The notes below the pieces were generated by a model, which saw only the letters and a program-made list of their open reading frames with translations, made no database searches and had not been told where the DNA came from. Shown here piece after piece: positions 1 through 11,900 of a stretch of 11,900 bases of DNA; the first letter of the stretch is position 1; the number at the start of each line of letters is the position of its first letter. The DNA lies in assembly GCA_964447495.1 (NCBI GenBank), contig CAYUTF010000092.1:1-11900 (forward strand), given 5' to 3'. This DNA is from an uncultured archaeon. GTDB taxonomy: Archaea; Asgardarchaeota; Lokiarchaeia; Sigyniarchaeales; SOKP01. The position numbers and the translations under genes were made by a program.

Positions 1-313
1 AAGCAGTCATAAAAGCATCAGATGCTACATTCACACCAACATGTTTCATACACGCTACAGACCGAACATTAGCCATTGAACCTCCATATGCTACCTCAAA
101 GCCCACTTTTTCGTTTATACTCCATTCCAATTTAAGGTGAGGGTGGAATCGGGCCATTTCAGCCAACGTAGTTAAAATCTCAGACGAAGGTGTCCCTGGA
201 TATCCTGCAGCAATTTCCACGCCGGCTTCAAGAATTCCTCTAGCAAGGGCTTCATTTCCTAACAAAATTGCCTTTTCTCCGGGCAATTCTTCAGCATACT
301 TAGGTTTAATCAT
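1..313 (-). CDS. iorA: Indolepyruvate:ferredoxin oxidoreductase alpha subunit, N-terminal part (runs off the window start)
   Basis: Not in the ORF track; translated by hand from ATG at 313: [50 protein letters not shown]...[42 protein letters not shown]. It has the IorA motifs GNEAx[11 protein letters not shown], EWSxNEKV and MKHVGxNVAxD. An SD (GAGGTGA) lies upstream and the start overlaps the iorB stop (ATGATTAA). Confidence 0.95.
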
Positions 314-926
314 TTGCTTCACCTCTAATTAATTCTCCTTTCTCTATGCCTAAATCAAATGCGACTTTATTAATATCCCGGGTTTTTTTGGGAATAAAGT
401 TCATTATAGAATCAAAAATAATTTCCCTTTTGATAGGAATCTGGTTCATCCCTACAAGAACTCCTAACATAACTACATTCATAGCTCTTTGATTTCCTGC
501 TTTTAAAGCAAGATTATCTGCAGGGATAAAATGGATATTTTTAGAAACGGCACTTAAAAATTTGTGAATTTGATTCATAGTAGGATATTCTAATCCTTGT
601 TGATGAATCATTGGTGGAATTATTATTTTATTGTTAATCAAAAAGTGAGTTTGGGGTCCAGCATAATTGAAATTTCTTACAGCTTCACTTGCTTCAAACG
701 CTAAAAGCACATCTGCTTTACCTCGAGGAATTAGTGGACCTTCAATTTTACTTCCAAACCGTAAATAGGATGCAACACTTCCTCCTCTCTGAGCCATTCC
801 ATGAGTTTCTGCAGTTCTAACCTGATATCCTTCTTTCATAGCCGCCCAAGAAAGAATTTGAATAGATAAAATTACTCCTTGACCACCAACGCCTACATTG
901 AGTAAATTATAACTCTGGATTGTCAT
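306..926 (-). CDS. iorB: Indolepyruvate:ferredoxin oxidoreductase beta subunit
   Basis: 206 aa with [27 protein letters not shown] and NVVMLG motifs typical of IorB; overlaps the iorA start by 8 bp. Confidence 0.93.
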
Positions 927-1214
927 AAGGAATCTTTCTAGGAAATATTCTTTTTAATAATATATATTTCTTATTAATTTCCATAATTTAATTATATTTT
1001 TCGTTATGTAGTATAATGGGAAGGGTATCCCATCAGAGTTGATTTAAGAAACTTAAATTCTGATAATAAACATTTGGAATTTTAAAGAGAACGCTTATAT
1101 ATAATGAAAGCTAATCTTAAAAATTACATAACCATATTTTGCTACTTTCTTAGTAAAAAAACTTTTATTAGAACTATATTTTAGTGAATTATAACTTCGA
1201 AGGAAAAAGTAAAA

Positions 1215-2747
1215 ATGAAAATTGCAATTATTGGATCTGGTTTAGCAGGGCTTACCGCAGCAGCATATTTAGTAAAGGAAGGACATGAAGTAAAGGTATT
1301 TGAGCAATTTGAAGAAATTGGGGGAGTTACAGCCACACTCCATAAAGATCAATATTCTTGGGACATTGGGCCTTTATTATTAGAAGGTTTTGCACCGCAT
1401 GAAAAGTTTGGAAAAATTCTTGTTGAATTAGGATTGACAAATAAAATTGATATAATCAATGATGATAGAGGCCAATCATTTCCAGATTTTCAAATATGGA
1501 AGCCAGAAGATTATAAAGGACCGTATTGGAGACGAGAGTATTTTAAAAAACTATTTCCATCAGAAAGCGAGGGACTCGATAAGTATTATAAATTCTATGA
1601 TCACATGATGGCTATTATGTATTTGGGAAATCAGTTACCCTTTGCTAAAGGTTTAAAAGCTAATACATTAAAATTAAAGATGCTATTCAAATTTATGAAA
1701 GTGAAAAAATTTAAAGATTGGAATGCTGGCCAAATAACAGATTACTTTTTTAAAGAACAAAAATTAAAAGCTATATATTTAGGAATCTTAGCAGATATGG
1801 TAGTCAGGCCCAGTCAATTTTTTGGCTTAGGTGTTCCCCTCTTTAATGTAGAAACGGCTTTTGACAAACGCATTCCAATAACCGCTAAATATGGCAAATT
1901 GCCTACATATCATTACATTAAAAATGGATGCGAGACATTAGTTAAAGCTTTAGCTGATTTCACTATATCTAATGGAGGAGAAATTCATACACGTAGCAAA
2001 ATAATTAAAATTATTATCGAAAACAATAAAGCAAAAGGTATAATGCTTGAAAATAATGAGATTATAGATGCAGATTTAGTTATTACCAGTGGTGGTGTTT
2101 TAAATACGTTCTTTAATCTTATAGGTCGTGAATATTTGCCTTCAGAATTAATATCGCTAATTGAAAAATTGCAATATATGGAATCCGTATTTTTTGTAAA
2201 CATAGGAATAGATTTTGATCCTTCTCCATACCAAAGGAAAGCATTATGCTATTATTATGGAACTTATGATATAGAAGGGGGAATAGACACATGTATTTCA
2301 GGGAGATATCATGAAGGAAAGGATGGATTTTTAATTTATATCCCGTCTATGCATTCACCTGAAATGGCTCCTCCTGGTAAACATGCAGTAACAGTATATA
2401 CAATTGCGCCTCATAAGTTAAATGAAGGAGATTGGACACAAAGGAAAGAAGAATACGCTGAAAAACTATTAATCGAAGCTGAAAAGTATATACCTGGGTT
2501 GAGAGCGCATATACAAACAAAAGTAGTTCTCACTCCTGATGATTTTACATCCCGAATAAATGTTGTTCGCCATAGTTTTGGAGGATTAGCACCTATTATT
2601 GGGCAAATAGGACCCTCACACCGGACTCCAATTAACAATTTGTGGTATATTGGAGCCTACAGTGAATCTGGGGGAGGAGTTGCTGGCACAGCTTTTGGAG
2701 CTCGAAATGCTGTAAATATGATTTTAAAGGAATTTAAAAATCAGTGA
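1215..2747 (+). CDS. Phytoene desaturase family / NAD(P)-FAD-dependent oxidoreductase, substrate unknown
   Basis: 510 aa. N-terminal Rossmann MKIAIIGSGLAGLTAA...VFE...GG, WDIGP, SMHSPEMAPPGKH, TPDDF, and C-terminal TPINNLWYIGA...GGGVAG, all typical of CrtI-like/COG1233 enzymes. Confidence 0.85.
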   Translation: MKIAIIGSGLAGLTAAAYLVKEGHEVKVFEQFEEIGGVTATLHKDQYSWDIGPLLLEGFAPHEKFGKILVELGLTNKIDIINDDRGQSFPDFQIWKPEDYKGPYWRREYFKKLFPSESEGLDKYYKFYDHMMAIMYLGNQLPFAKGLKANTLKLKMLFKFMKVKKFKDWNAGQITDYFFKEQKLKAIYLGILADMVVRPSQFFGLGVPLFNVETAFDKRIPITAKYGKLPTYHYIKNGCETLVKALADFTISNGGEIHTRSKIIKIIIENNKAKGIMLENNEIIDADLVITSGGVLNTFFNLIGREYLPSELISLIEKLQYMESVFFVNIGIDFDPSPYQRKALCYYYGTYDIEGGIDTCISGRYHEGKDGFLIYIPSMHSPEMAPPGKHAVTVYTIAPHKLNEGDWTQRKEEYAEKLLIEAEKYIPGLRAHIQTKVVLTPDDFTSRINVVRHSFGGLAPIIGQIGPSHRTPINNLWYIGAYSESGGGVAGTAFGARNAVNMILKEFKNQ

Positions 2748-3197
2748 TATGTCTTTGTTATTAAAACATATATATTTTAAATCCTAAATAGATTTACTTT
2801 ATATTCAATTACTTAAAATTCTTATTCATAATCTTCGATATCTCCTTCTTTTTAATATTATTTGTTAGATACGTTTTAAAATCCACTGGAAATTGTTTCA
2901 AGTCTCATTAAATCAAGGATCATTCCTTATTAAGATCTTAATAATTTGTCACTTTATTTTGATTTGTAACATTTCTATTCAAAATTTATTCAAAATTTGG
3001 GATGATATATTTCAACAAAATTGCATTATGTCCCATGAATTGTGAGAAAAAATTTTACTTTTAATTAAAATTATGAGCCAACTTAGCTTTTATTTTCTAA
3101 TTATTGATTATTACCTATAATAAAAAAAGATGCTAAATCAATTGCTTTCTATCATTCTATTTTATAGATTATTCAAATCCAACGTTTATTAAATTGA

Positions 3198-3212
3198 CGA
3201 AACATTTTTATA
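3198..3212 (+). promoter_or_regulatory. Archaeal BRE-TATA promoter with no downstream protein gene
   Basis: CGAAACA followed by TTTTTATA (3198-3212) matches the BRE plus TATA arrangement. The expected start site about 25-27 nt downstream (~3235) coincides with the 5' end of a hairpin. Confidence 0.6.
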
Positions 3213-3235
3213 GTGGGATGAACATATTATAGATT

Positions 3236-3354
3236 AGAAAATTTCGATTTTCTTTTTTGTAGTGGAATGTTTGTTTTTAGCCCATAATTTATTCCTCCAC
3301 GAATTGTTTGGACTTAAATTCCAATACATTCCATTACTTTTTCCTTTTTTTTTT
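3236..3354 (+). ncRNA. Candidate intergenic small RNA of about 120 nt with two stem-loops
   Basis: Hairpin 1 is AGAAAAU-UUCG-AUUUUCU (3236-3253). Hairpin 2 spans 3259-3337, with a 12-bp basal stem GUAGUGGAAUGU/ACAUUCCAUUAC, interrupted inner stems and a 10-nt loop AUUCCUCCAC. A promoter lies upstream and a U-tract downstream. Three G-U pairs favour the + strand. Confidence 0.6.
3338..3354 (+). terminator. Oligo-U terminator of the candidate sRNA
   Basis: TTTTTCCTTTTTTTTTT lies immediately 3' of the long hairpin. Confidence 0.55.
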
Positions 3355-3481
3355 AAAAGTTTGTTAATACATTTAATTTTTAATTCATTTAAGAAAAACT
3401 GCCCAATTTATGAAATAAGTTATTATAAGATGTTTTTCTAGGTATTGGGTTAATAATAGAGAAATAAACACTTAACAGTAA

Positions 3482-4678
3482 TTATTCTTCTTGTTTCATT
3501 TTTTTAATTTCCTCAATAAGTACAGGAATTACCTGATGAAGATCACCCACTATACCATAATGAGCAACATTAAATATAGGAGCATTTGGATCTTTATTAA
3601 TTGCGACGATTATTTCTGAGTTTTCCATTCCAACTAAATGTTGAATCGCTCCAGAAATTCCACATGCAATATATAGTTTTGGGGCAACAGTTTTTCCTGT
3701 TTGACCTACTTGGTGGTCCTGATCTAACCAATTTAATTCTATAGTTACTCTTGATCCTCCTAATTCTGCCCCTAATACATTTGCTAACTCCTCAACGATT
3801 TTAAATTTTTCTTTTGAGCCAACTCCTCTGCCTCCTGAAACTATAATTTCAGCATCTTCAAGGTTTGCTTTCTTTTTTTGCTTATCAATAATTTTAACGA
3901 TTTTAGTTACGGAATCTTTCTCCTCAAAATCCTTTACGATTTTAGTAACTTTAATGTCTTTTTTTGATACCTTAACGGCTTTAAATATTCCCGGCCTAAC
4001 AGTCGCCATTTGAGGTCTACTTGTGGGCGTTCTTATAGTGGCCATAATATTACCCCCAAATGTAGGGCGAGTTTGTAACAAATTACCTGTTTCTTCTTCA
4101 ATCTCTAATCCTGTACAATCTGCGGTTAGTCCTGCATTAAGCTTTTTAGCAATTCGCGGTGCAAAATCTCTCCCAGTCGGAGTAGCTCCTATTAGGATTA
4201 TCTCTGGTTTTCGTTCTTGTATTAATTCCGCTAACATGCTAACATACAAATCCGAATAATAATTTTTCAATAACGATGATTTAATATAAATAACCTCATC
4301 TGCACCATATTCAGCAAAATCCTTTAAGAGATTATCAAATCTATCACCTAACAAAACAAGGACTAAATTAACTTTTAGTTTATTCGCAAGTTCTCTCCCT
4401 CTCCCTAAGAGTTGATATGCAACTTTATGAATTACCCCTTTATAATGTTCAGCAATCACCCAGACTCCCTTATATTGTGTTTTATCAACCTTATCAATAT
4501 ATTCTTCTCGTTCTAAAGTTATAGCCTCCACAGGACAAGCATCTATACATGCACCACACAATGTACACTCTTCAGTAATAACTGCAATATTATCGATTAT
4601 TTCAATTCCTCCAAATGGACAATTTGCAACACAACTAGCACAGCCTGTACATAATTCATCATCAATAATAATGCTCAT
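3482..4678 (-). CDS. etfA: Electron transfer flavoprotein alpha subunit with N-terminal 2x[4Fe-4S] ferredoxin domain
   Basis: CTGCASCVANCP and CTLCGACIDACP precede an EtfA body (GLTADC, QTRPTFGGN, VSGGRG, QVGQTGKTVAP, ACGISGAIQH, AINKDPNAPIF). SD-like GAGGGAG lies upstream. Confidence 0.96.
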   Translation of the reverse strand: MSIIIDDELCTGCASCVANCPFGGIEIIDNIAVITEECTLCGACIDACPVEAITLEREEYIDKVDKTQYKGVWVIAEHYKGVIHKVAYQLLGRGRELANKLKVNLVLVLLGDRFDNLLKDFAEYGADEVIYIKSSLLKNYYSDLYVSMLAELIQERKPEIILIGATPTGRDFAPRIAKKLNAGLTADCTGLEIEEETGNLLQTRPTFGGNIMATIRTPTSRPQMATVRPGIFKAVKVSKKDIKVTKIVKDFEEKDSVTKIVKIIDKQKKKANLEDAEIIVSGGRGVGSKEKFKIVEELANVLGAELGGSRVTIELNWLDQDHQVGQTGKTVAPKLYIACGISGAIQHLVGMENSEIIVAINKDPNAPIFNVAHYGIVGDLHQVIPVLIEEIKKMKQEE

Positions 4679-4691
4679 TTTATTCTCCCTC

Positions 4692-5510
4692 TCATATAAT
4701 TTTATCTTCTCGAAGATTATTGCACAACTCTTGAGACATTTCTTCTATTGTTCCTTCAAGCTTAATGTGTTTGCCTTTACGTTGAGGTACAAAAATGCGC
4801 CATACTTCAGTTTGACTTCCGTTTAATCCGATCTCAGATTTATCTGCTCCGAGATCTTCTGCAGACAATGAAATTACCTGTTTTTTAGAATACGCATTAA
4901 CTATACCTTTAACTCCTGGATTTCTTGGCATATTCAATTCTTTAAGTACTGAAATTAATGCGGGTAATTTTGTTTCTATTATAACTACCTCATCTGACCT
5001 AAATGCACGTTCGACGAGTATCTTATTATTTTCCTTTAATTCAAATTTTAATACATAGGTTATTTGAGGAATATTTAATTCTTCTGCTAACTCGGGACCA
5101 ACTTGAGCAGTATCTCCATCAATAGCTTGTGTTCCGCAAATCACAATATAATCCTCATTCTTTTTTAAATCTCTTAATAGTTTCTTGATTCCTAAAGCTA
5201 ATGTATGAGACGTAGCTAATGTATCGGCTCCTGCAAATGCTCTATCAGTGAGTAAGTAAGCTTTGTCAGCACCCATAGCTAAAGCTTCTCTTAATGCTGT
5301 TTCTGCTTGAGGAGGGCCCATGCTAAGAGCTATCACTTCTCCGCTGTACTTTTGTCTTATTGAAATACCCAATTCGATTGCATGTTTATCATGAGGATTT
5401 ATTATTGAAGGTATACCTTCCCGTACTAGAGTGTTTGTTTTCGGGTCAATTTTTACTTCGGATACGCCTGGAACTTGCTTTATACACACAAAAATTTTCA
5501 CAATTAACAC
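4692..5510 (-). CDS. etfB: Electron transfer flavoprotein beta subunit (start is GTG 5510 or GTG 5501)
   Basis: VCIKQVP, INPHD, SMGP, DRAFAGADTLATS and GTQAIDGDTAQVGP motifs; ends 13 bp before etfA. Confidence 0.96.
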   Translation of the reverse strand: MLIVKIFVCIKQVPGVSEVKIDPKTNTLVREGIPSIINPHDKHAIELGISIRQKYSGEVIALSMGPPQAETALREALAMGADKAYLLTDRAFAGADTLATSHTLALGIKKLLRDLKKNEDYIVICGTQAIDGDTAQVGPELAEELNIPQITYVLKFELKENNKILVERAFRSDEVVIIETKLPALISVLKELNMPRNPGVKGIVNAYSKKQVISLSAEDLGADKSEIGLNGSQTEVWRIFVPQRKGKHIKLEGTIEEMSQELCNNLREDKII

Positions 5511-5635
5511 TTAGGAGAAATTTTTTACTACTATAAAATATTGAAACACTTTTAAACAATATAATTTTTTATTTTAAATAATTATACAAAAATTTCCAAA
5601 AGAAAAAATTAAGGAATTAAATCAAGATAGTTTAA

Positions 5636-6799
5636 TTATTTTTTTCTTAGCATATGATTAGCTATTACCATTCTTTGAATTTCACTTGTACCCTCATAAA
5701 TTTCTGCCACCTTAGCGTCTCGAAAATATCGTTCGACAGGGTATGATTTCATTAACCCATAGCCCCCATGAATCTGTACAGCTTGATGAGCGCCATACAT
5801 TGCTGCTTCTGATGCAACAAGTTTAGCCATTGAAGCGGACAATCCATAATCCATTTTTTTGTCACACATCCATGCTGCTTGATATACTAATAATCTAGAA
5901 GATTCTACAGCTGTGGTCATGTCCGCAATTTTCCATTGAATTCCTTGAAATCGCGCAATTTTAGTACCAAATTGTTCTCGTTCATTTGCATATTTTATAG
6001 ACGCCTCTAAACAAGCCTGAGCTAACCCAAGGCATTGAGCAGCTATCGTTATTCTTCCATAATCCAGAATTCGTAATCCTAGTTTAAATCCATTTCCGAG
6101 TCCTCCTAAAATATTTTCCTCAGGAACAGCAACATTATCAAATACCAATTCTGAAGTATTAGAAGCACGCACTCCTAATTTATCCTCTTTTACTCCAACG
6201 GAGTAACCGGGCGTATCTCTATCAACAATAAACACGGTTAATTCTTTTCTCTTTCCTTGTTGACCTGTTTTACCAACAACTAGCATAGTACTTGCAATTC
6301 CGCCATTAGTTGCAAATATCTTGCTTCCATTAAGTATATATTCATCTCCATCTTTTTCTGCAGTCAATTGTACACCTCCAGCATCTGAACCAGCATTGGC
6401 TTCAGTTAAGCAAAAAGCTCCAATCTTTTCGCCTTTTGCTAATGGAATAAGGAATCTTTTCTTTTGCTTCTCCGTTCCGTATTTATAAATAGGATAAGCA
6501 CAGACAGAACAATGAACGCCTGTTGTTATAGCCCAAGAAGCATCTACCCTTCCAATCTCCTCTGTAATTATGGTAAACGCAATAGTATCGTTATGCAATC
6601 CTGCTCCCCCATACTCTTCTGGAATACATGTTCCAAAATAGTTTAATTCTTTCATTTTCTCCATAACAGTAGGATTCAATTCTTGTTTGCGATCAGATTC
6701 TTCTGCTACTGGAGTAATATATTCTTCGGCAAATTCACGAGTAAGTTTTCGTATCATTTTTTGCTTTTCTGTTAACTCAAAATCCATACTAACCATCAA
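5636..6799 (-). CDS. Acyl-CoA dehydrogenase, short-chain/butyryl-CoA type (true start probably ATG 6796 or 6787)
   Basis: IPEEYGGAG, GAFCLTEANAGSDA, LNGSKIFATNG, KLGVRAS, GRITIAAQ, QIHGGYG and ERYFRDAK...IYEGTSEIQR (catalytic Glu); adjacent to etfBA. Confidence 0.95.
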   Translation of the reverse strand: MMVSMDFELTEKQKMIRKLTREFAEEYITPVAEESDRKQELNPTVMEKMKELNYFGTCIPEEYGGAGLHNDTIAFTIITEEIGRVDASWAITTGVHCSVCAYPIYKYGTEKQKKRFLIPLAKGEKIGAFCLTEANAGSDAGGVQLTAEKDGDEYILNGSKIFATNGGIASTMLVVGKTGQQGKRKELTVFIVDRDTPGYSVGVKEDKLGVRASNTSELVFDNVAVPEENILGGLGNGFKLGLRILDYGRITIAAQCLGLAQACLEASIKYANEREQFGTKIARFQGIQWKIADMTTAVESSRLLVYQAAWMCDKKMDYGLSASMAKLVASEAAMYGAHQAVQIHGGYGLMKSYPVERYFRDAKVAEIYEGTSEIQRMVIANHMLRKK

Positions 6800-6946
6800 A
6801 TCAAAACAAATTTCAGATACAAAATATAATTAAAACTACTTTAAAAGAATAAATGTTTTCATTCTATTGAATTATAATACCTTAAAAATAACTTCTTATA
6901 TCTGATTTGAAAAAGGAAATAAAAAAAAATTAAGAAGTTAAAAAAT

Positions 6947-7765
6947 TTAATTTGATATACTATAAGGCATCTCAGCATCCAGTTTTCGTGATAGTTTTTT
7001 AGGACCAGCATAGATGATAACAATGATTAAATAAATACCAATCATCACCCCCCCACCGATGTAAAATACCATTTGAGGAAGTAATCCGAATAACCCTGTA
7101 ATAAACGTGCCATTGAAGTTGAAGCTAAAATGGAAAATTATAGTAATGATTAAACTTCCTTTTGTATTGTTATATCCCCAAGTCATTAAAATAGAGATTA
7201 CAACTACAAGAAAGATAAAAATATAAAATGGGATTCGAGGCTCTATAAAATATAGTGGGATATGCCAACAAGCCCATATTATCCCCAGAAATATACTAGC
7301 AGTCAACGCATTGAATCTTGTTTGTAATCTTGGGAGTGCAAAACCACGCCATCCAGCTTCTTCACTAAGAGGACCCCTAAATAGAGTAAGAAATAGCTCA
7401 CTCAAGATTATTGGAATAGTCAAACCTACTACAGGTCCGGGTGTTGAACCTCCAATAAGAAGATAAATGGCTGCAAATATTAAAGGACCTATCATCAATA
7501 GAAATCCAGCAAAATACCATGAGATTCCTACCTTCCATATCAAAAACCTTTTTAATAATTTCTTAAGCTCTTGCCACCCTCCAATTAATCCAGAGATGAT
7601 AATTGCTGAAATTGTTGGACTCCAAATCATTATTATAAGCATGATTTCGGGAAGAATTCCAAAGATATAGATAATGATTGGTATAATCATTAACAAATAG
7701 CTCAAAACAAAGAAGGAACTAAGTGAAAACTTTTTTAATACTTCAGATAAATTCATGAATAACAT
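6947..7765 (-). CDS. CPBP family (Abi/Rce1, type II CAAX) intramembrane glutamic protease, copy 1 (likely start ATG 7756)
   Basis: Multi-TM protein with EEAGWRG, WACWH and HFSFN motifs. The 7756 start aligns with the paralog N-terminus and sits about 27 nt from a TATA box. Confidence 0.92.
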   Translation of the reverse strand: MLFMNLSEVLKKFSLSSFFVLSYLLMIIPIIIYIFGILPEIMLIIMIWSPTISAIIISGLIGGWQELKKLLKRFLIWKVGISWYFAGFLLMIGPLIFAAIYLLIGGSTPGPVVGLTIPIILSELFLTLFRGPLSEEAGWRGFALPRLQTRFNALTASIFLGIIWACWHIPLYFIEPRIPFYIFIFLVVVISILMTWGYNNTKGSLIITIIFHFSFNFNGTFITGLFGLLPQMVFYIGGGVMIGIYLIIVIIYAGPKKLSRKLDAEMPYSISN

Positions 7766-7824
7766 TGCATTTGATTTCTATTTATATCTGTTGGAGTCCG
7801 AATTTAGATACTTATATTAAAAAC

Positions 7825-7836
7825 AAAAAAAAAAAA
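7825..7836 (-). terminator. Oligo-T terminator of the FG-GAP gene
   Basis: A12 on the + strand (T12 on -) starts about 27 nt after the stop codon at 7863. Confidence 0.55.
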
Positions 7837-7862
7837 GAGTATTAAAAGTGATTTTGAATCTT

Positions 7863-7952
7863 CTATTTAAACTCCTTTTTATTTGCGAAAGCGACAGAAA
7901 TGATTGCTATCACACTCGTAATAATAACTATCAAGTTAGCATACCCCGGAAT
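7863..7952 (-). other. C-terminal protein-sorting signal (IPGY, TM helix, basic tail)
   Basis: IPGYANLIVIITSVIAIISVAFANKKEFK* has the tripartite motif/TM/basic layout of the PGF-CTERM and Loki-CTERM class. Confidence 0.8.
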
Positions 7953-9455
7953 AGATTGAGGGGTTGGAGTAATAAAAACTCTTTTTTCTGCTCCAAAAAA
8001 CAGATAAGCTTTCCCTGCAAGAGGTTCTGAATAACTATATTGATGGGCTCCTATAAGAAAATCATCATAATCATCCCCATTAACATCACCAATTCCTGCT
8101 AATGAACTCGATGAGGTGTCGCCATTTTTCTCTCCGATAAATGAAGCATCTGCATTTTGAATGGGAGTATCCATATTCCAACTAGAGTCTTTTCCAAATA
8201 TTAAGTATGTTTTTCCACGGGAACCTCCACTTATATATCCTATTGCACCAAGAAGAATATCATTATAAGTATCATTATTTATATCATATGCTCCAGTTAA
8301 GTAATTACCCAAAAGATCATTATGATTTTCACCATGGAAAGAAGCATCTGCATCTGATAAGTTGTATACTGAATTCCATGTCTCTTTACCAAAAATGATA
8401 TAAGCCTGTCCAGCACTACTTTCAGATTCATCGTTGCCAGGAGCACCTATCATGAAGTCATTATAACCATCACCGTTTATATCGCCTACTCCGGAAACAG
8501 CACTACCAGATAGATCATATTCCTTTTCCCCATTGAAAGTCACATCTGCATTTGTAAGATTCACATCAGTATTCCATCCCAATTCTTTACCAAAGATCAA
8601 ATAAGACTGGCCAGCACTAGTTCCTAATTCGTCATTTAGATATGCGCCTATTAAAAAGTCACCAAAATTATCTCCATTTACATCCCCCAATCCAGATATT
8701 GAAAAGCCTGCATGATCAGACTCTTTTACTCCTGTAAAAGAAGCATTACAATTTGAAAGACTGATATCCATTTCCCAATCAGATTCTCTTCCAAAAATTA
8801 GATATATTTTCCCTGCGTTGCTTGCATATTCATCATTCCACTTATCTCCTATCAAGATATCATCATAATTATCTCCATTTACATCCTTGATAATGTCGAT
8901 GGAATTTCCTGCTCTATCACTCATTATTTCTCCCAAGAAAGAGGCATCAGCATTAGCTAGGCTTGTATTTAGTCCCCATCCTGAAGCTTTACCTAAAATT
9001 AAATAGATCTGACCATCAGTTTCTCCAGTTTCATCATTCAAGGGGGCTGAAATGAGAAGATCGTCAAACCCATCCCCATTAACATCACCTCCTCCACCAA
9101 GTGCATGTCCGGATTCATCTCCACTTAATTCCCCGATAAATGTAGCATTAGCATTAGCAAGATCAAAGATTTCTGGCCAATTTGATGTTCTTCCAAAAAA
9201 TATGTATGTTTGACCTGCGTTCTGAGAATTTACATCACTTCTCGACGCACTAATACAAAAATCGGATATAGTATCTCCATTTAGATCCCCTACTCCTATT
9301 AAGGATTGACCAAAATAATCTTGAGAAGCTAGACCATAAAATGAAGTATCTGCTTTTTCAATTCCTACATTTGATTGCCAAGCAACTATAGATGAGCTGA
9401 AGATCATTATAAATAAGATAAAAATACCAAGAGTTAGGAAGAATTTTTTATTCAT
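7863..9455 (-). CDS. Secreted, membrane-anchored FG-GAP repeat (integrin-alpha-like) beta-propeller protein with an IPGY (Loki-CTERM-like) sorting signal
   Basis: Signal peptide MNKKFFLTLGIFILFIMIFSSSIVA, seven DxN(G/N)DxxxD repeats each followed by GA-type and GxxYxxFG strands, a TPTP linker, IPGY, a TM helix and a basic tail KKEFK. Confidence 0.9.
   Translation of the reverse strand: MNKKFFLTLGIFILFIMIFSSSIVAWQSNVGIEKADTSFYGLASQDYFGQSLIGVGDLNGDTISDFCISASRSDVNSQNAGQTYIFFGRTSNWPEIFDLANANATFIGELSGDESGHALGGGGDVNGDGFDDLLISAPLNDETGETDGQIYLILGKASGWGLNTSLANADASFLGEIMSDRAGNSIDIIKDVNGDNYDDILIGDKWNDEYASNAGKIYLIFGRESDWEMDISLSNCNASFTGVKESDHAGFSISGLGDVNGDNFGDFLIGAYLNDELGTSAGQSYLIFGKELGWNTDVNLTNADVTFNGEKEYDLSGSAVSGVGDINGDGYNDFMIGAPGNDESESSAGQAYIIFGKETWNSVYNLSDADASFHGENHNDLLGNYLTGAYDINNDTYNDILLGAIGYISGGSRGKTYLIFGKDSSWNMDTPIQNADASFIGEKNGDTSSSSLAGIGDVNGDDYDDFLIGAHQYSYSEPLAGKAYLFFGAEKRVFITPTPQSIPGYANLIVIITSVIAIISVAFANKKEFK
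8073..9290 (-). repeat. Seven intragenic FG-GAP repeats
   Basis: The Ca-loop motifs begin at 9290, 9089, 8888, 8687, 8486, 8288 and 8090, spaced 201, 201, 201, 201, 198 and 198 nt. Confidence 0.9.
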
Positions 9456-9532
9456 TTTTATTACCTAAATTTAATTTAATGAATAATTATTCGAATTCAT
9501 ATAAATAATTTTCACTTTCTTATTACAAAATA

Positions 9533-9550
9533 GTCAAAAGCCATTTTGAC
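9533..9550. promoter_or_regulatory. Possible transcription-factor operator (inverted repeat)
   Basis: GTCAAAA-gcca-TTTTGAC lies about 30 bp upstream of the minus-strand TATA (TTTATAT, ~9499-9505) of the FG-GAP gene. Confidence 0.35.
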
Positions 9551-9680
9551 CATTTGGTTTAGATACGAGTTAGAATTAAAATAATTGTAAAAGAATAAAA
9601 ATTTTTAATTTCAATAAAACAGGAGATAAGAACTAATCCCTTTTTCAATTAGATTCTATGAGATATAGCACTTTATATCT

Positions 9681-10313
9681 TTAATTCAATTTTTTTAGAA
9701 ATTTTCTTTTTCTTTTTTGAAGTATTGGTGCTTTATATCCAAGTAAATTATCAAATACTATTTCTTGCTTTAGTTGAGGACGAAAGATAAATTTATAATA
9801 CTTTTTTTTCCAGTAAAATCGTAGACTGTTAAGATATATTGCTAATTCTTTTATTTGCTGGGGGTCTATATTTGTATATGTGGTTATAATTTCTTCTTCT
9901 GTATTAAATTCAATATTTCTTTTTAATAAAGTGCCATCTGTTTTTAAAACATAAATAGTACCATTTAGTAATAAATTCTTTTCTTTATTATGGGTCAATC
10001 CAAGATATTGAGCATACAACTTAAAATATTGATTAATTTTAGCGTCTAGATAATTCTTTTGAATTACATCTCGATTTTTATTTTTTATTAGATCCTTCAA
10101 CTGCAATTCCTCTATTTGAGTTTCCTTTGTTTGAAGTATTTCATAATATTTCACCTGGAGGTTAGTAAAGATTAGCAACTCTATATCACTATAAAAATCT
10201 TGTACTTCACGTGCTAAAATTCTATCATCTTTAATATGATCCCAAATTACAAAAAAAAGGACTGCTATGGAGACTCCCAAACTAAGATATACTATAGCAT
10301 CCGTGGAATTCAT
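9681..10313 (-). CDS. Hypothetical membrane-anchored protein
   Basis: 210-aa ORF with an N-terminal TM (AIVYLSLGVSIAVLFFVIW), a helical soluble region and a polybasic C-terminus KRKRKFLKKLN; no family recognised. Confidence 0.75.
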   Translation of the reverse strand: MNSTDAIVYLSLGVSIAVLFFVIWDHIKDDRILAREVQDFYSDIELLIFTNLQVKYYEILQTKETQIEELQLKDLIKNKNRDVIQKNYLDAKINQYFKLYAQYLGLTHNKEKNLLLNGTIYVLKTDGTLLKRNIEFNTEEEIITTYTNIDPQQIKELAIYLNSLRFYWKKKYYKFIFRPQLKQEIVFDNLLGYKAPILQKRKRKFLKKLN

Positions 10314-10412
10314 CTTTTTTCCATCTAGTTTATTATTTTAGATTGATATATAATATGATACTTAATATTATTTACTTATTGTTTATAAAATCATTATAAA
10401 ATTTTTCTCTGT

Positions 10413-11222
10413 CTAATTTAGGACTTTAAAAGGCATCTCTGAATCAGATTTTCGAGAAAGCTTTTTAGGACCAGCATAGATAATAACAATGATTAAATAA
10501 ATCCCAATCATTATTCCACCACCAATATAGAAAACCATTTGAGGTAATAATCCTAAATATCCAGTAATAAAAGCTCCATTAAAGTTAAAGCAGAAATGAA
10601 ATAATACGGCGATTATCAAACTTCCTTTAGTATTATTATACCCCCATGTTATTAAAATTGAAATTACAAGATTTAGGAAAATAAATATGTAAAAAGGTAT
10701 ACGGGTTTCAACAAAATATAACGGGATATGCCAACAACCCCATATCAATCCTAAAACCAAGCTTGAAGTTAAGGCACTAAATTTTGATTCAAGTCTTGGT
10801 AAAGCAAACCCTCTCCATCCTGCTTCCTCGCTTAAAGGACCGGATAATAGAGTAGTTAACAAGTAAAATAGAAACAAAGGAAAAGTTAATCCAGTTACTG
10901 GTCCTGGCGCGCTTCCTCCAAGTAAAAGATAAATCCCCGAAAAAATAAGCGGAGCAATCATTAACAGAAATGCGGCTAAGTACCATTTATAACCTACTTT
11001 CCATTTTAGAAATCCCTTTAAGAGGATTTTTACTTCTGTCCAACCTCCAATTAACCAAGAAGTAATCAAAGCGGCTATTGTTGGATTCCAAACTGAAAAA
11101 AACCAATAAATTATGAAATCTAAACCCCAAAATAATCTAAGAATAACAGTTACAATCATTATCAGATAAGTTAATAAAAAATAGAAAGTAAGTGAATACT
11201 TTTTAATAAATTCTGAAGACAT
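10413..11222 (-). CDS. CPBP family (Abi/Rce1) intramembrane glutamic protease, copy 2
   Basis: EEAGWRG, WGCWH and HFCFN motifs; collinear paralog of 6947..7765. Confidence 0.92.
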   Translation of the reverse strand: MSSEFIKKYSLTFYFLLTYLIMIVTVILRLFWGLDFIIYWFFSVWNPTIAALITSWLIGGWTEVKILLKGFLKWKVGYKWYLAAFLLMIAPLIFSGIYLLLGGSAPGPVTGLTFPLFLFYLLTTLLSGPLSEEAGWRGFALPRLESKFSALTSSLVLGLIWGCWHIPLYFVETRIPFYIFIFLNLVISILITWGYNNTKGSLIIAVLFHFCFNFNGAFITGYLGLLPQMVFYIGGGIMIGIYLIIVIIYAGPKKLSRKSDSEMPFKVLN

Positions 11223-11240
11223 AATATATAAAATCTGACT

Positions 11241-11254
11241 TTTTTATATAAAAA
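11241..11254. promoter_or_regulatory. Palindromic TATA box in the divergent CPBP-2 / MBL intergenic region
   Basis: TTTTTATATAAAAA is self-complementary and centred about 26 nt upstream of the CPBP-2 ATG (11222). Confidence 0.55.
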
Positions 11255-11311
11255 GATTTCATAGCCCGATTTTTAATTAGTATTAAATTTTATTATTGCA
11301 TACTTTAATTT

Positions 11312-11900
11312 ATGGCGAATAGCACTCAACACTTCGAAATTTCAAAACTTAAAGAATATCTATATGTGATTAAAGAAAATATCTCTCTTGTTCATCCTGT
11401 TTATACAAATGATCCTTTGAATATGTATTTGATCTTAGGAGACCATTCTGCTCTTCTCCTTGATACCGGTTGTGGGCTTTCTCCTCTCAAACCAGTTGTT
11501 GAAGATTTAATTGCAGACCGGGAGTTAATCGTTTTAAATAGCCATACTCACTGGGATCATATCTTAGGAAATAAAGAATTCGGAGAAGTGTTTGTTCACG
11601 AAGAAGAAGCCCATATAGTTTCACGATCCTATGATGTTTCATATTTTCAAGACTCTCCTAACAAGAAAGTTATTCAAATATACGCAAATCAGAATTTTTT
11701 AATTCCTCCTGCTCCAGTTATAAAAACATTCAAAGATCAAGATGAATTTGACTTGGGTGGATTAAAAGTGAAAATTATACATTGCCCAGGACATTCCCCT
11801 GGGTCTATTTGCTTACTCTCGAGTAATAATGAACTTTTTACTTCTGATGTGGCCTATTATGGAGACATATTTTTACCAGAGAGAAATAAATTTTCTCAAG
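11312..11900 (+). CDS. MBL-fold metallo-hydrolase, 3' end beyond the window
   Basis: Not in the ORF track; translated by hand: MANSTQHFEISKLKEYLYVIKE...MYLILGDHSALLLDTGCG...VLNSHTHWDHILGN...DLGGLKVKIIHCPGHSPGSICLL...LFTSD. It has DTG, HxHxDH, PGHSPG and the downstream Asp. Confidence 0.93.
   Translation, partial: MANSTQHFEISKLKEYLYVIKENISLVHPVYTNDPLNMYLILGDHSALLLDTGCGLSPLKPVVEDLIADRELIVLNSHTHWDHILGNKEFGEVFVHEEEAHIVSRSYDVSYFQDSPNKKVIQIYANQNFLIPPAPVIKTFKDQDEFDLGGLKVKIIHCPGHSPGSICLLSSNNELFTSDVAYYGDIFLPERNKFSQ

Follow-up and report, generated by a model that had tools for sequence, protein, structure and literature searches.

A conserved small RNA gene in a Lokiarchaeial lineage and its predicted antisense pairing with histone-fold mRNAs

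The small RNA gene and its conservation

The window analysed here is an 11,900-nucleotide (nt) stretch of DNA from an uncultured archaeon of the Lokiarchaeia (assembly GCA_964447495.1, contig CAYUTF010000092.1, positions 1 to 11,900), and our subject is an element at 3198-3354, a small RNA (sRNA) gene that is antisense to the start regions of histone genes in the same genome and that we suggest may control their translation. The element lies in a gap of 734 nt between two convergent open reading frames (ORFs). The upstream neighbour (1215-2747, + strand) is a flavin amine-oxidase-like gene; the downstream neighbour (3482-4678, - strand) encodes the alpha subunit of an electron-transfer flavoprotein (ETF) with a ferredoxin domain. 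The latter gene belongs to an operon (3482-6799, - strand) of ETF alpha, whose N-terminal domain is a 2x[4Fe-4S] ferredoxin domain, ETF beta, and an acyl-CoA dehydrogenase. Among 79 loci of the element, ETF alpha is the convergent neighbour in 58 (genera g1, g21, and g22 in our labelling), and several genera carry the element with no ETF gene nearby. The features that an initial annotation had read from the letters alone (an archaeal promoter, a UUCG hairpin, a long hairpin with the wobble pair G3262·U3334, its loop, and a T-rich tract) were all confirmed at the positions discussed below, and we have little doubt that this is a real, conserved, and structured sRNA gene.

The promoter is of the archaeal type, with a transcription factor B recognition element (BRE, CGAAA) and a TATA box (TTTTTATA), the whole reading CGAAACATTTTTATA at 3198-3212 (+ strand). 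In a comparison of 97 distinct loci, the arrangement CGAAA-nn-TTTATTA/TTTTTATA is kept across genera about 23 nt before the first hairpin; from the distance to the TATA box, transcription is predicted to start at around 3234-3237. Immediately upstream, adjoining the BRE, is the motif AACGTTTATTAAATTGA (3181-3197, + strand). The form (G)AACGTTCATAAAATTGA is kept directly upstream of the promoter in many of the 97 loci, and many other genera have GAACGTTCATAAAATTGA, which contains the palindrome GAACGTTC. The motif is a possible regulator-binding site; it occurs once in its own genome and is absent before the histone genes, and no promoter motif common to the sRNA and the histone genes was found.

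Two hairpins follow on the + strand. The 5' hairpin (3236-3253) is the 7-base-pair (bp) stem AGAAAAU/AUUUUCU with a UUCG loop and is supported by both fold and covariation. The second hairpin (3259-3337) is long and imperfect and stands on a 12-bp base stem, in which GUAGUGGAAUGU (3259-3270) pairs with ACAUUCCAUUAC (3326-3337) and which includes the wobble pair named above. The 5' arm and loop together make up the antisense segment (3267-3300), the reverse complement of the Shine-Dalgarno (SD) sequence, spacer, AUG, and codons 2-6 of a histone gene of the type encoding MAKKKHS at its N-terminus. At the apex (3291-3304), the stem AUUC/GAAU carries the loop CUCCAC, in which the anti-SD core CCUCC is displayed, and this is the likely site of first contact with a target. 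The apical sequence at 3291-3300 is AUUCCUCCAC, and ATTCCTCCAC in this region is invariant in 19 of 19 BLAST homologues. The 3' internal arm (3301-3325), which pairs back on the antisense arm, is variable, with a length of 14-40 nt. The gene closes with a T-rich tract (3338-3354), read as an oligo-T terminator and a possible Lsm-binding tail; the genome has three Lsm genes. An unbroken run of at least five T within the 30 nt after CATTCC is found in 95 of the 97 distinct loci, the remaining two being truncated records, and the flanks past the T-run are not conserved. Taken together, these signals point to a + strand RNA of about 105-115 nt, running roughly from 3236 to 3345.

Homologues were sought in three ways. 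BLAST with 3190-3360 located them in 18 of 24 genomes of the same genus at 69-91% identity (70-82% for matches over most of the query), and in 16 genomes of other families it gave only short, weak matches. An exact pattern of three blocks from the alignment, for which the reversed pattern served as control, matched 99 of the 154 genomes of the order and 98 of the 134 in the window's family, against none of the 19 genomes in three sister families and no reversed-control match at all; each matching genome has one copy, except for one (G005) with two. Across 185,579 species genomes (one per prokaryotic species), the same pattern found 99 stretches, and among the 80 stretches listed nearly all are titled Promethearchaeota or Promethearchaeia, with a few other Asgard names and one bacterial. 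Finally, a covariance model built from 19 sequences gave a single strong match in each of 102 of the 131 genomes of one Promethearchaeota (Loki) family and none in the 19 genomes of the three sister families outside it. Within the family, the sRNA was not found in genus g12 (0/5, including 100%-complete genomes) or in genus g13 (0/1). We thus have an uncatalogued RNA family of around 100 members, now with a covariance model: Rfam 15, run on both strands of the whole window with E up to 10, gave no family in or near 3198-3354 and only three chance-level matches (E of at least 3) elsewhere, and ARAGORN found no tRNA or tmRNA in the window. Its own assembly (3.8 Mb, 98.4% complete) contains one full copy of the element by BLAST, relatives likewise have a single copy, and no second copy was found elsewhere in the window; a miniature inverted-repeat transposable element (MITE) or other dispersed repeat was therefore ruled out. 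In these respects, the initial annotation was borne out, as it had placed the DNA in an Asgard archaeon, recognised no RNA family, named many dispersed copies as the mark of a MITE, and proposed as one test a search for homologues that keep the loop and compensate the stems; such homologues were recovered.

The same annotation had called for folding of both strands. On the + strand, the fold has an energy of -25.8 kcal/mol (z = -4.33), and none of 200 shuffles was as good; the - strand, at -25.7 kcal/mol (z = -5.31), folds equally well, and folding energy therefore does not decide the strand. Pairing was then counted over 61 distinct sequences aligned to the covariance model, with shuffles and slid partners as controls: 92.5% of cells are paired, compared to 84.2% when shuffled and 40-58% when slid, although the alignment was fitted to the model and such counts consequently lean towards structure. 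Thirteen pairs change on both sides, a number reached in 0 of 500 shuffles. In hairpin 1, all nine model pairs covary with changes on both sides, and this covariation is plain in the raw, unfitted listing of loci too. The base stem behaves differently, in that seven of its 11 pairs never vary and 99.9% of its cells are paired. Its G·U pair (G3262/U3334) is present in 55 of the 61 sequences; read from the - strand, it would become a C·A mismatch. This conserved wobble, the conserved BRE/TATA upstream, and the T-run downstream (95/97) assign the gene to the + strand.

The two internal arms of the long hairpin differ in conservation, with a mean pairwise identity over 90 distinct sequences of 0.72 for the 5' (antisense) arm and 0.53 for the 3' arm, as would be expected of a 5' arm that also pairs with a partner in trans. 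Their lengths (11-26 nt for the 5' arm and 14-40 nt for the 3' arm) differ by amounts not divisible by three, which rules out a conserved ORF.

Complementarity to histone-fold start regions

The best non-self match of the element in its own genome is on the opposite strand of another contig, C40 (33-34 nt, 88%, E = 3e-4 by BLAST). The match (21039-21071) sits exactly on the start of a 72-amino-acid gene that begins MAKKKHSFAWSPIRRLMK and whose product is a histone (PF00808, E = 1.9e-8; against the NCBIfam archaea_histone model it scores 47 bits, just below the cut-off of 50). When 3267-3300 is compared as reverse complement with the SD, spacer, AUG, and codons 2-6 of this gene, 30 of 34 positions match. 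The genome has four classical histone paralogues, and the three besides that on C40 give matches at E = 5e-19 to 6e-10. A fifth gene, on contig C56, encodes a 66-amino-acid DUF1931-type protein with a histone fold, and the five histone-fold starts are therefore located at C40:21039, C24:7731, C36:13967, C17:1351, and C56:1624. The four classical histone genes and the C56 gene share a near-identical start, (U/G)GGAGGAAUAAA..AUG, despite the divergence of their proteins. The 13-mer GTGGAGGAATAAA, which is the complement of the sRNA loop and its 5' flank, occurs five times in 3.8 Mb: before the start codons of all four histone genes and on the - strand of the sRNA locus itself. The predicted targets are on contigs other than that of the sRNA, and no histone gene was found in any of the 79 sRNA loci (about 3 kb or less each).

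The likeness is not confined to this genome. In 13 genomes from 10 genera, the genome's own sRNA arm is antisense to the start of its own MAKKKHS-type histone gene, with 22-33 identical positions over 24-43 columns, and sRNA insertions or deletions of 3-6 nt are tolerated. In many genomes, the likeness extends into the His-Ser codons (CAUUC), which fall within the base stem of the sRNA, and this points to an origin by inversion: most likely, part of the 5' end of a MAKKKHS-type histone gene was copied in inverted orientation and gave rise to the sRNA gene. Histone starts with GGAGGAAU correlate in part with the presence of the sRNA; counted by eye in the first 150 rows of the histone-start listing, they number 1/14 in family f2, 4/14 in genus g12, 17/18 in g15, and 12/20 in g16.

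Candidate targets were ranked over 6,584 putative start regions, taken from -30 to +30 around the chosen start of every ORF of at least 60 amino acids under a crude ORF rule; scans of start regions were used because, in genome-wide sliding-window RNAduplex, G/U-rich windows give long spurious duplexes. Two scores were computed, the RNAduplex energy of 3259-3302 against each region and the dimer energy of the full RNA and target minus the folding energy of each on its own (background mean -2.8, standard deviation 2.5 kcal/mol). The C40 histone is first by both (-42.6 kcal/mol by RNAduplex and -25.1 kcal/mol after subtraction of folding), the C24 histone is second and fifth (-39.0 and -15.1), the C56 gene is third and second (-35.8 and -17.9), and the gene for ribosomal protein L37e is fourth and third. 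The two other classical histones are placed fifth and 316th (C36: -34.5 and -7.7) and 33rd and 369th (C17: -27.4 and -7.4).

The assignment of the C56 protein as histone-fold is based on PDB matches to DUF1931 and bacterial-histone entries (9qt0, DUF1931: E = 1.3e-10; 8cmp: E = 9e-7; 8fvx: E = 1e-6). It falls below the Pfam and NCBIfam cut-offs and is only remotely related to classical histones. In all 30 loci of its orthologues, GGAGGAAU precedes the AUG, and 28 of the 30 have AUGGCUAAAAA. The C56-type gene is present in 49 of 55 sampled genomes of the family but in 0/4 of genus g12 and 0/5 of family f2, both of which also have no sRNA; as g12 and f2 are close kin, this shared absence amounts to one or two independent events.

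Proposed function and alternative explanations

We suggest that the RNA is a trans-acting antisense sRNA that controls the translation of histone-fold mRNAs by pairing with their start regions, probably as a repressor, and we rate this explanation at slightly better than even. In our model, the exposed CCUCCAC loop would contact the GUGGAGG of histone mRNAs, and pairing would spread into the weak, mismatched upper stem, so that the duplex with the mRNA of the MAKKKHS-type histone would reach about 34 bp at most. This would mask the SD and the AUG and block initiation by the ribosome. The long duplex may then be cut by an RNase III-domain protein; RNase III is unusual in archaea, yet this genome (C118:6692-7054) encodes an RNase III-domain protein, a type of about 250 amino acids that is conserved in the order (57 of 61 genomes). 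Of the three Lsm proteins, one may bind the U-rich tail, and the 5' hairpin may be protective. The pairing has been taken as repressive here, but it may instead stabilise or activate the mRNA. The initial annotation had proposed that the loop pairs with ribosome-binding sites. As sequence complementarity this is supported and made narrower: the match is more than that of CCUCC to any SD, and over 34 nt of 5' arm and loop it follows the SD, AUG, and first codons of histone-fold genes.

A number of observations weigh against histone control as we have described it. Inspection by eye across genomes revealed no compensatory changes between sRNA and target; the complementarity could therefore be inherited likeness, with each partner separately constrained. 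The sRNA keeps AAAUUAUGG in the spacer, and histone spacers mostly have AAAAAAUGG, which leaves two mismatches or a bulge. No sRNA is detectable in genus g12, whose histone start regions are similar; conservation of the start region therefore does not depend on the sRNA. The antisense segment is mostly paired inside the hairpin, and once RNA structure is counted, the C36 and C17 histones are only moderate candidates. The start regions themselves come from a crude ORF caller, and the lean of the pair counts towards structure has been noted above. Hairpin 1 has, in many genomes, a 3' arm that is a run of six to nine T, about 20 nt past the predicted start, which could terminate transcription early or act as an attenuator. 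Lastly, the only RNA-library match, a contig from a relative (180 nt, depth 2) that covers 3247-3304 and stops exactly where the base stem closes on its 3' side, begins about 87 nt upstream of the predicted start of the sRNA; this metatranscriptome contig may thus be DNA or read-through. Matches in three other public runs are to relatives only.

The explanation that best survives next to histone control is that the RNA is structured and non-coding but has some other job, for example, in a ribonucleoprotein recognised via the invariant base stem, and that its likeness to histone genes is a trace of its origin. The lack of compensatory change and the persistence of the histone start region in g12 speak for it and against histone control. 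So does the base stem, both strands of which are near-invariant rather than covarying (7/11 pairs fixed), as this suggests recognition by a sequence-specific protein. However, the most conserved single-stranded part of the RNA is exactly the anti-SD/anti-AUG segment, and the antisense arm exceeds its pairing partner in conservation. The antisense relationship has also outlasted insertions and deletions in 10 genera, and a second, unrelated histone-fold family has the same start region. We therefore consider a different function unlikely, though it deserves to be kept in mind.

A general anti-SD regulator, with many mRNAs bound at their ribosome-binding sites by the CCUCC loop, seems to us improbable. 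The loop is indeed displayed and invariant, and non-histone genes such as that for L37e score well too. However, GGAGG is present in only 274 of the 6,584 putative start regions, so that such a role would touch few genes. Conservation, moreover, reaches far past the 5-nt core into positions that correspond to the spacer, the AUG, and the codons of histones, and the 13-mer complementary to the loop is found only at histone starts, besides the sRNA locus itself.

It is more improbable still that there is no RNA gene at all, the element being a decaying histone 5' pseudogene, a small ORF, a DNA element, or a terminator or 3' element of ETF alpha. The - strand does resemble a histone start (SD, AUG, Gly, stop), the + strand has a mechanical 59-amino-acid ORF (3262-3441), and ETF alpha is the neighbour in most loci. 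Coding was rejected on both strands: on the - strand, the SD-AUG is followed by two codons here, by four in some genomes, and by a longer stretch elsewhere, with no conservation, and on the + strand, the ORF is not conserved, and the arm lengths shift its frame. The stems, in contrast, covary, the promoter and T-run of the + strand are conserved up to flanks that are not, and the element is present in genera that have no ETF gene beside it. Least probable of all is a microRNA-like precursor of guides for an Argonaute acting on histone mRNAs, which was rejected, as despite the 79-nt imperfect hairpin with one arm antisense to a target and the RNase III-domain proteins conserved in the order, no Piwi domain (PF02171) was found in the 98.4%-complete genome by a search in which positive controls were detected. 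An H/ACA guide RNA was also considered and rejected; by eye, the stem is followed in most loci by ACU and a U-run, with ACAAC only in some, and no tandem G·A was seen.

To return to histone control, in its most far-reaching form the RNA would serve specifically to set the dosage of chromatin proteins after transcription, with one sRNA, born by inverted copy, pairing with the start region common to the classical histones and the DUF1931-type protein; to this proposal we give somewhat less than even credence. Archaeal chromatin is shaped by histone levels, and how archaea set these levels is hardly known; the model offers a concrete hypothesis for post-transcriptional histone control in this Loki lineage. 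If this is true, archaeal histones would here have their first riboregulator, parallel in function, with no homology, to the histone-specific RNA control of eukaryotes. The gene would also be a clear example of an sRNA born from its own target. A literature search, from whose coverage subscription journals were excluded, returned no report on small RNAs of Asgard or Loki archaea or on RNA control of archaeal histones.

Comparison with known RNAs and other features of the window

By its predicted mechanism, the RNA belongs among the trans-encoded antisense sRNAs that mask ribosome-binding sites, and it falls in no catalogued family. An archaeal precedent is sRNA162 of Methanosarcina mazei, which is described as trans-encoded, as masking the ribosome-binding site and start of an mRNA, and as thought to repress translation (PMC3510493). 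The Loki RNA resembles it as an archaeal RNA that is predicted to be trans-encoded and to mask ribosome-binding sites. In sRNA162, the pairing region is an unstructured linker and the target an internal cistron of a transcription-factor operon, whereas the Loki RNA would pair through a hairpin loop and arm; the Loki RNA has no sequence or structural relation to it, a longer complementarity (34 nt), histone-fold targets, and a distribution in one Loki family. What is new here is the class of target (histone-fold chromatin proteins), the lineage (Asgard), and an RNA evidently born from its own target. Another M. mazei RNA, sRNA41, reportedly pairs with several ribosome-binding sites and targets the mRNAs of metabolic operons (Buddeweg et al. 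2018).

Other RNAs resemble the Loki RNA in single respects. Escherichia coli DsrA pairs in antisense with the start of hns mRNA and so lowers the synthesis of an abundant nucleoid protein; a start region in the mRNA of a chromatin or nucleoid protein is also the predicted target of the Loki RNA, but DsrA is bacterial, depends on Hfq, pairs over a short and imperfect stretch, and is unrelated in sequence. The U7 small nuclear RNA pairs with histone mRNAs downstream of the coding region and directs the cleavage of their 3' ends. Both are small RNAs for histone mRNAs that act by base-pairing (in the Loki RNA by prediction) and have a U-rich protein-binding site, here a putative one, by a hairpin; the analogy is one of function only, with no detectable homology. 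RNAIII of Staphylococcus aureus and the alphaproteobacterial 'cuckoo' RNAs present several C-rich anti-SD loops with short seeds, whereas the Loki RNA has one such loop and a complementarity that runs about 25 nt further. A multi-loop C-rich sRNA was accordingly rejected, as only one of the two hairpins shows CCUCC and the other has a UUCG or A/U loop. Some plant microRNA genes were born by inverted duplication of their target genes, and they are alike in having an antisense arm and a decayed sense arm; no Argonaute was found in the Loki genome.

Upstream of the sRNA gene, 140-300 nt from its promoter, is a conserved non-coding block (2927-3075, + strand) that adjoins the sRNA in several genera. 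It opens with a perfect 18-bp palindrome, TTATTAAGATCTTAATAA (2927-2944), and closes with AATTAAAATTATG, and a regular-expression search found the gap-free spacing of 148-150 nt in 18 of 32 loci. Within the block, RNAalifold gave 0 pairs, and neither a conserved ORF nor 3-base periodicity was found; the fixed spacing suggests a DNA-level architecture for protein binding. That this palindrome block of about 150 bp acts as a DNA sensor coupling transcription of the sRNA to the state of the chromatin is an idea to which we assign a much lower likelihood than to the control of chromatin protein dosage. A similar palindrome occurs once elsewhere in the genome, on contig C220.

Further along the window, 7863-9455 (- strand) encodes a 530-amino-acid FG-GAP-repeat protein whose DNA has a periodicity of 198-201 nt. 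On either side of it is a CAAX-protease-like gene (6947-7765 and 10413-11222); the two are paralogues, with 76% identity over 300 nt.

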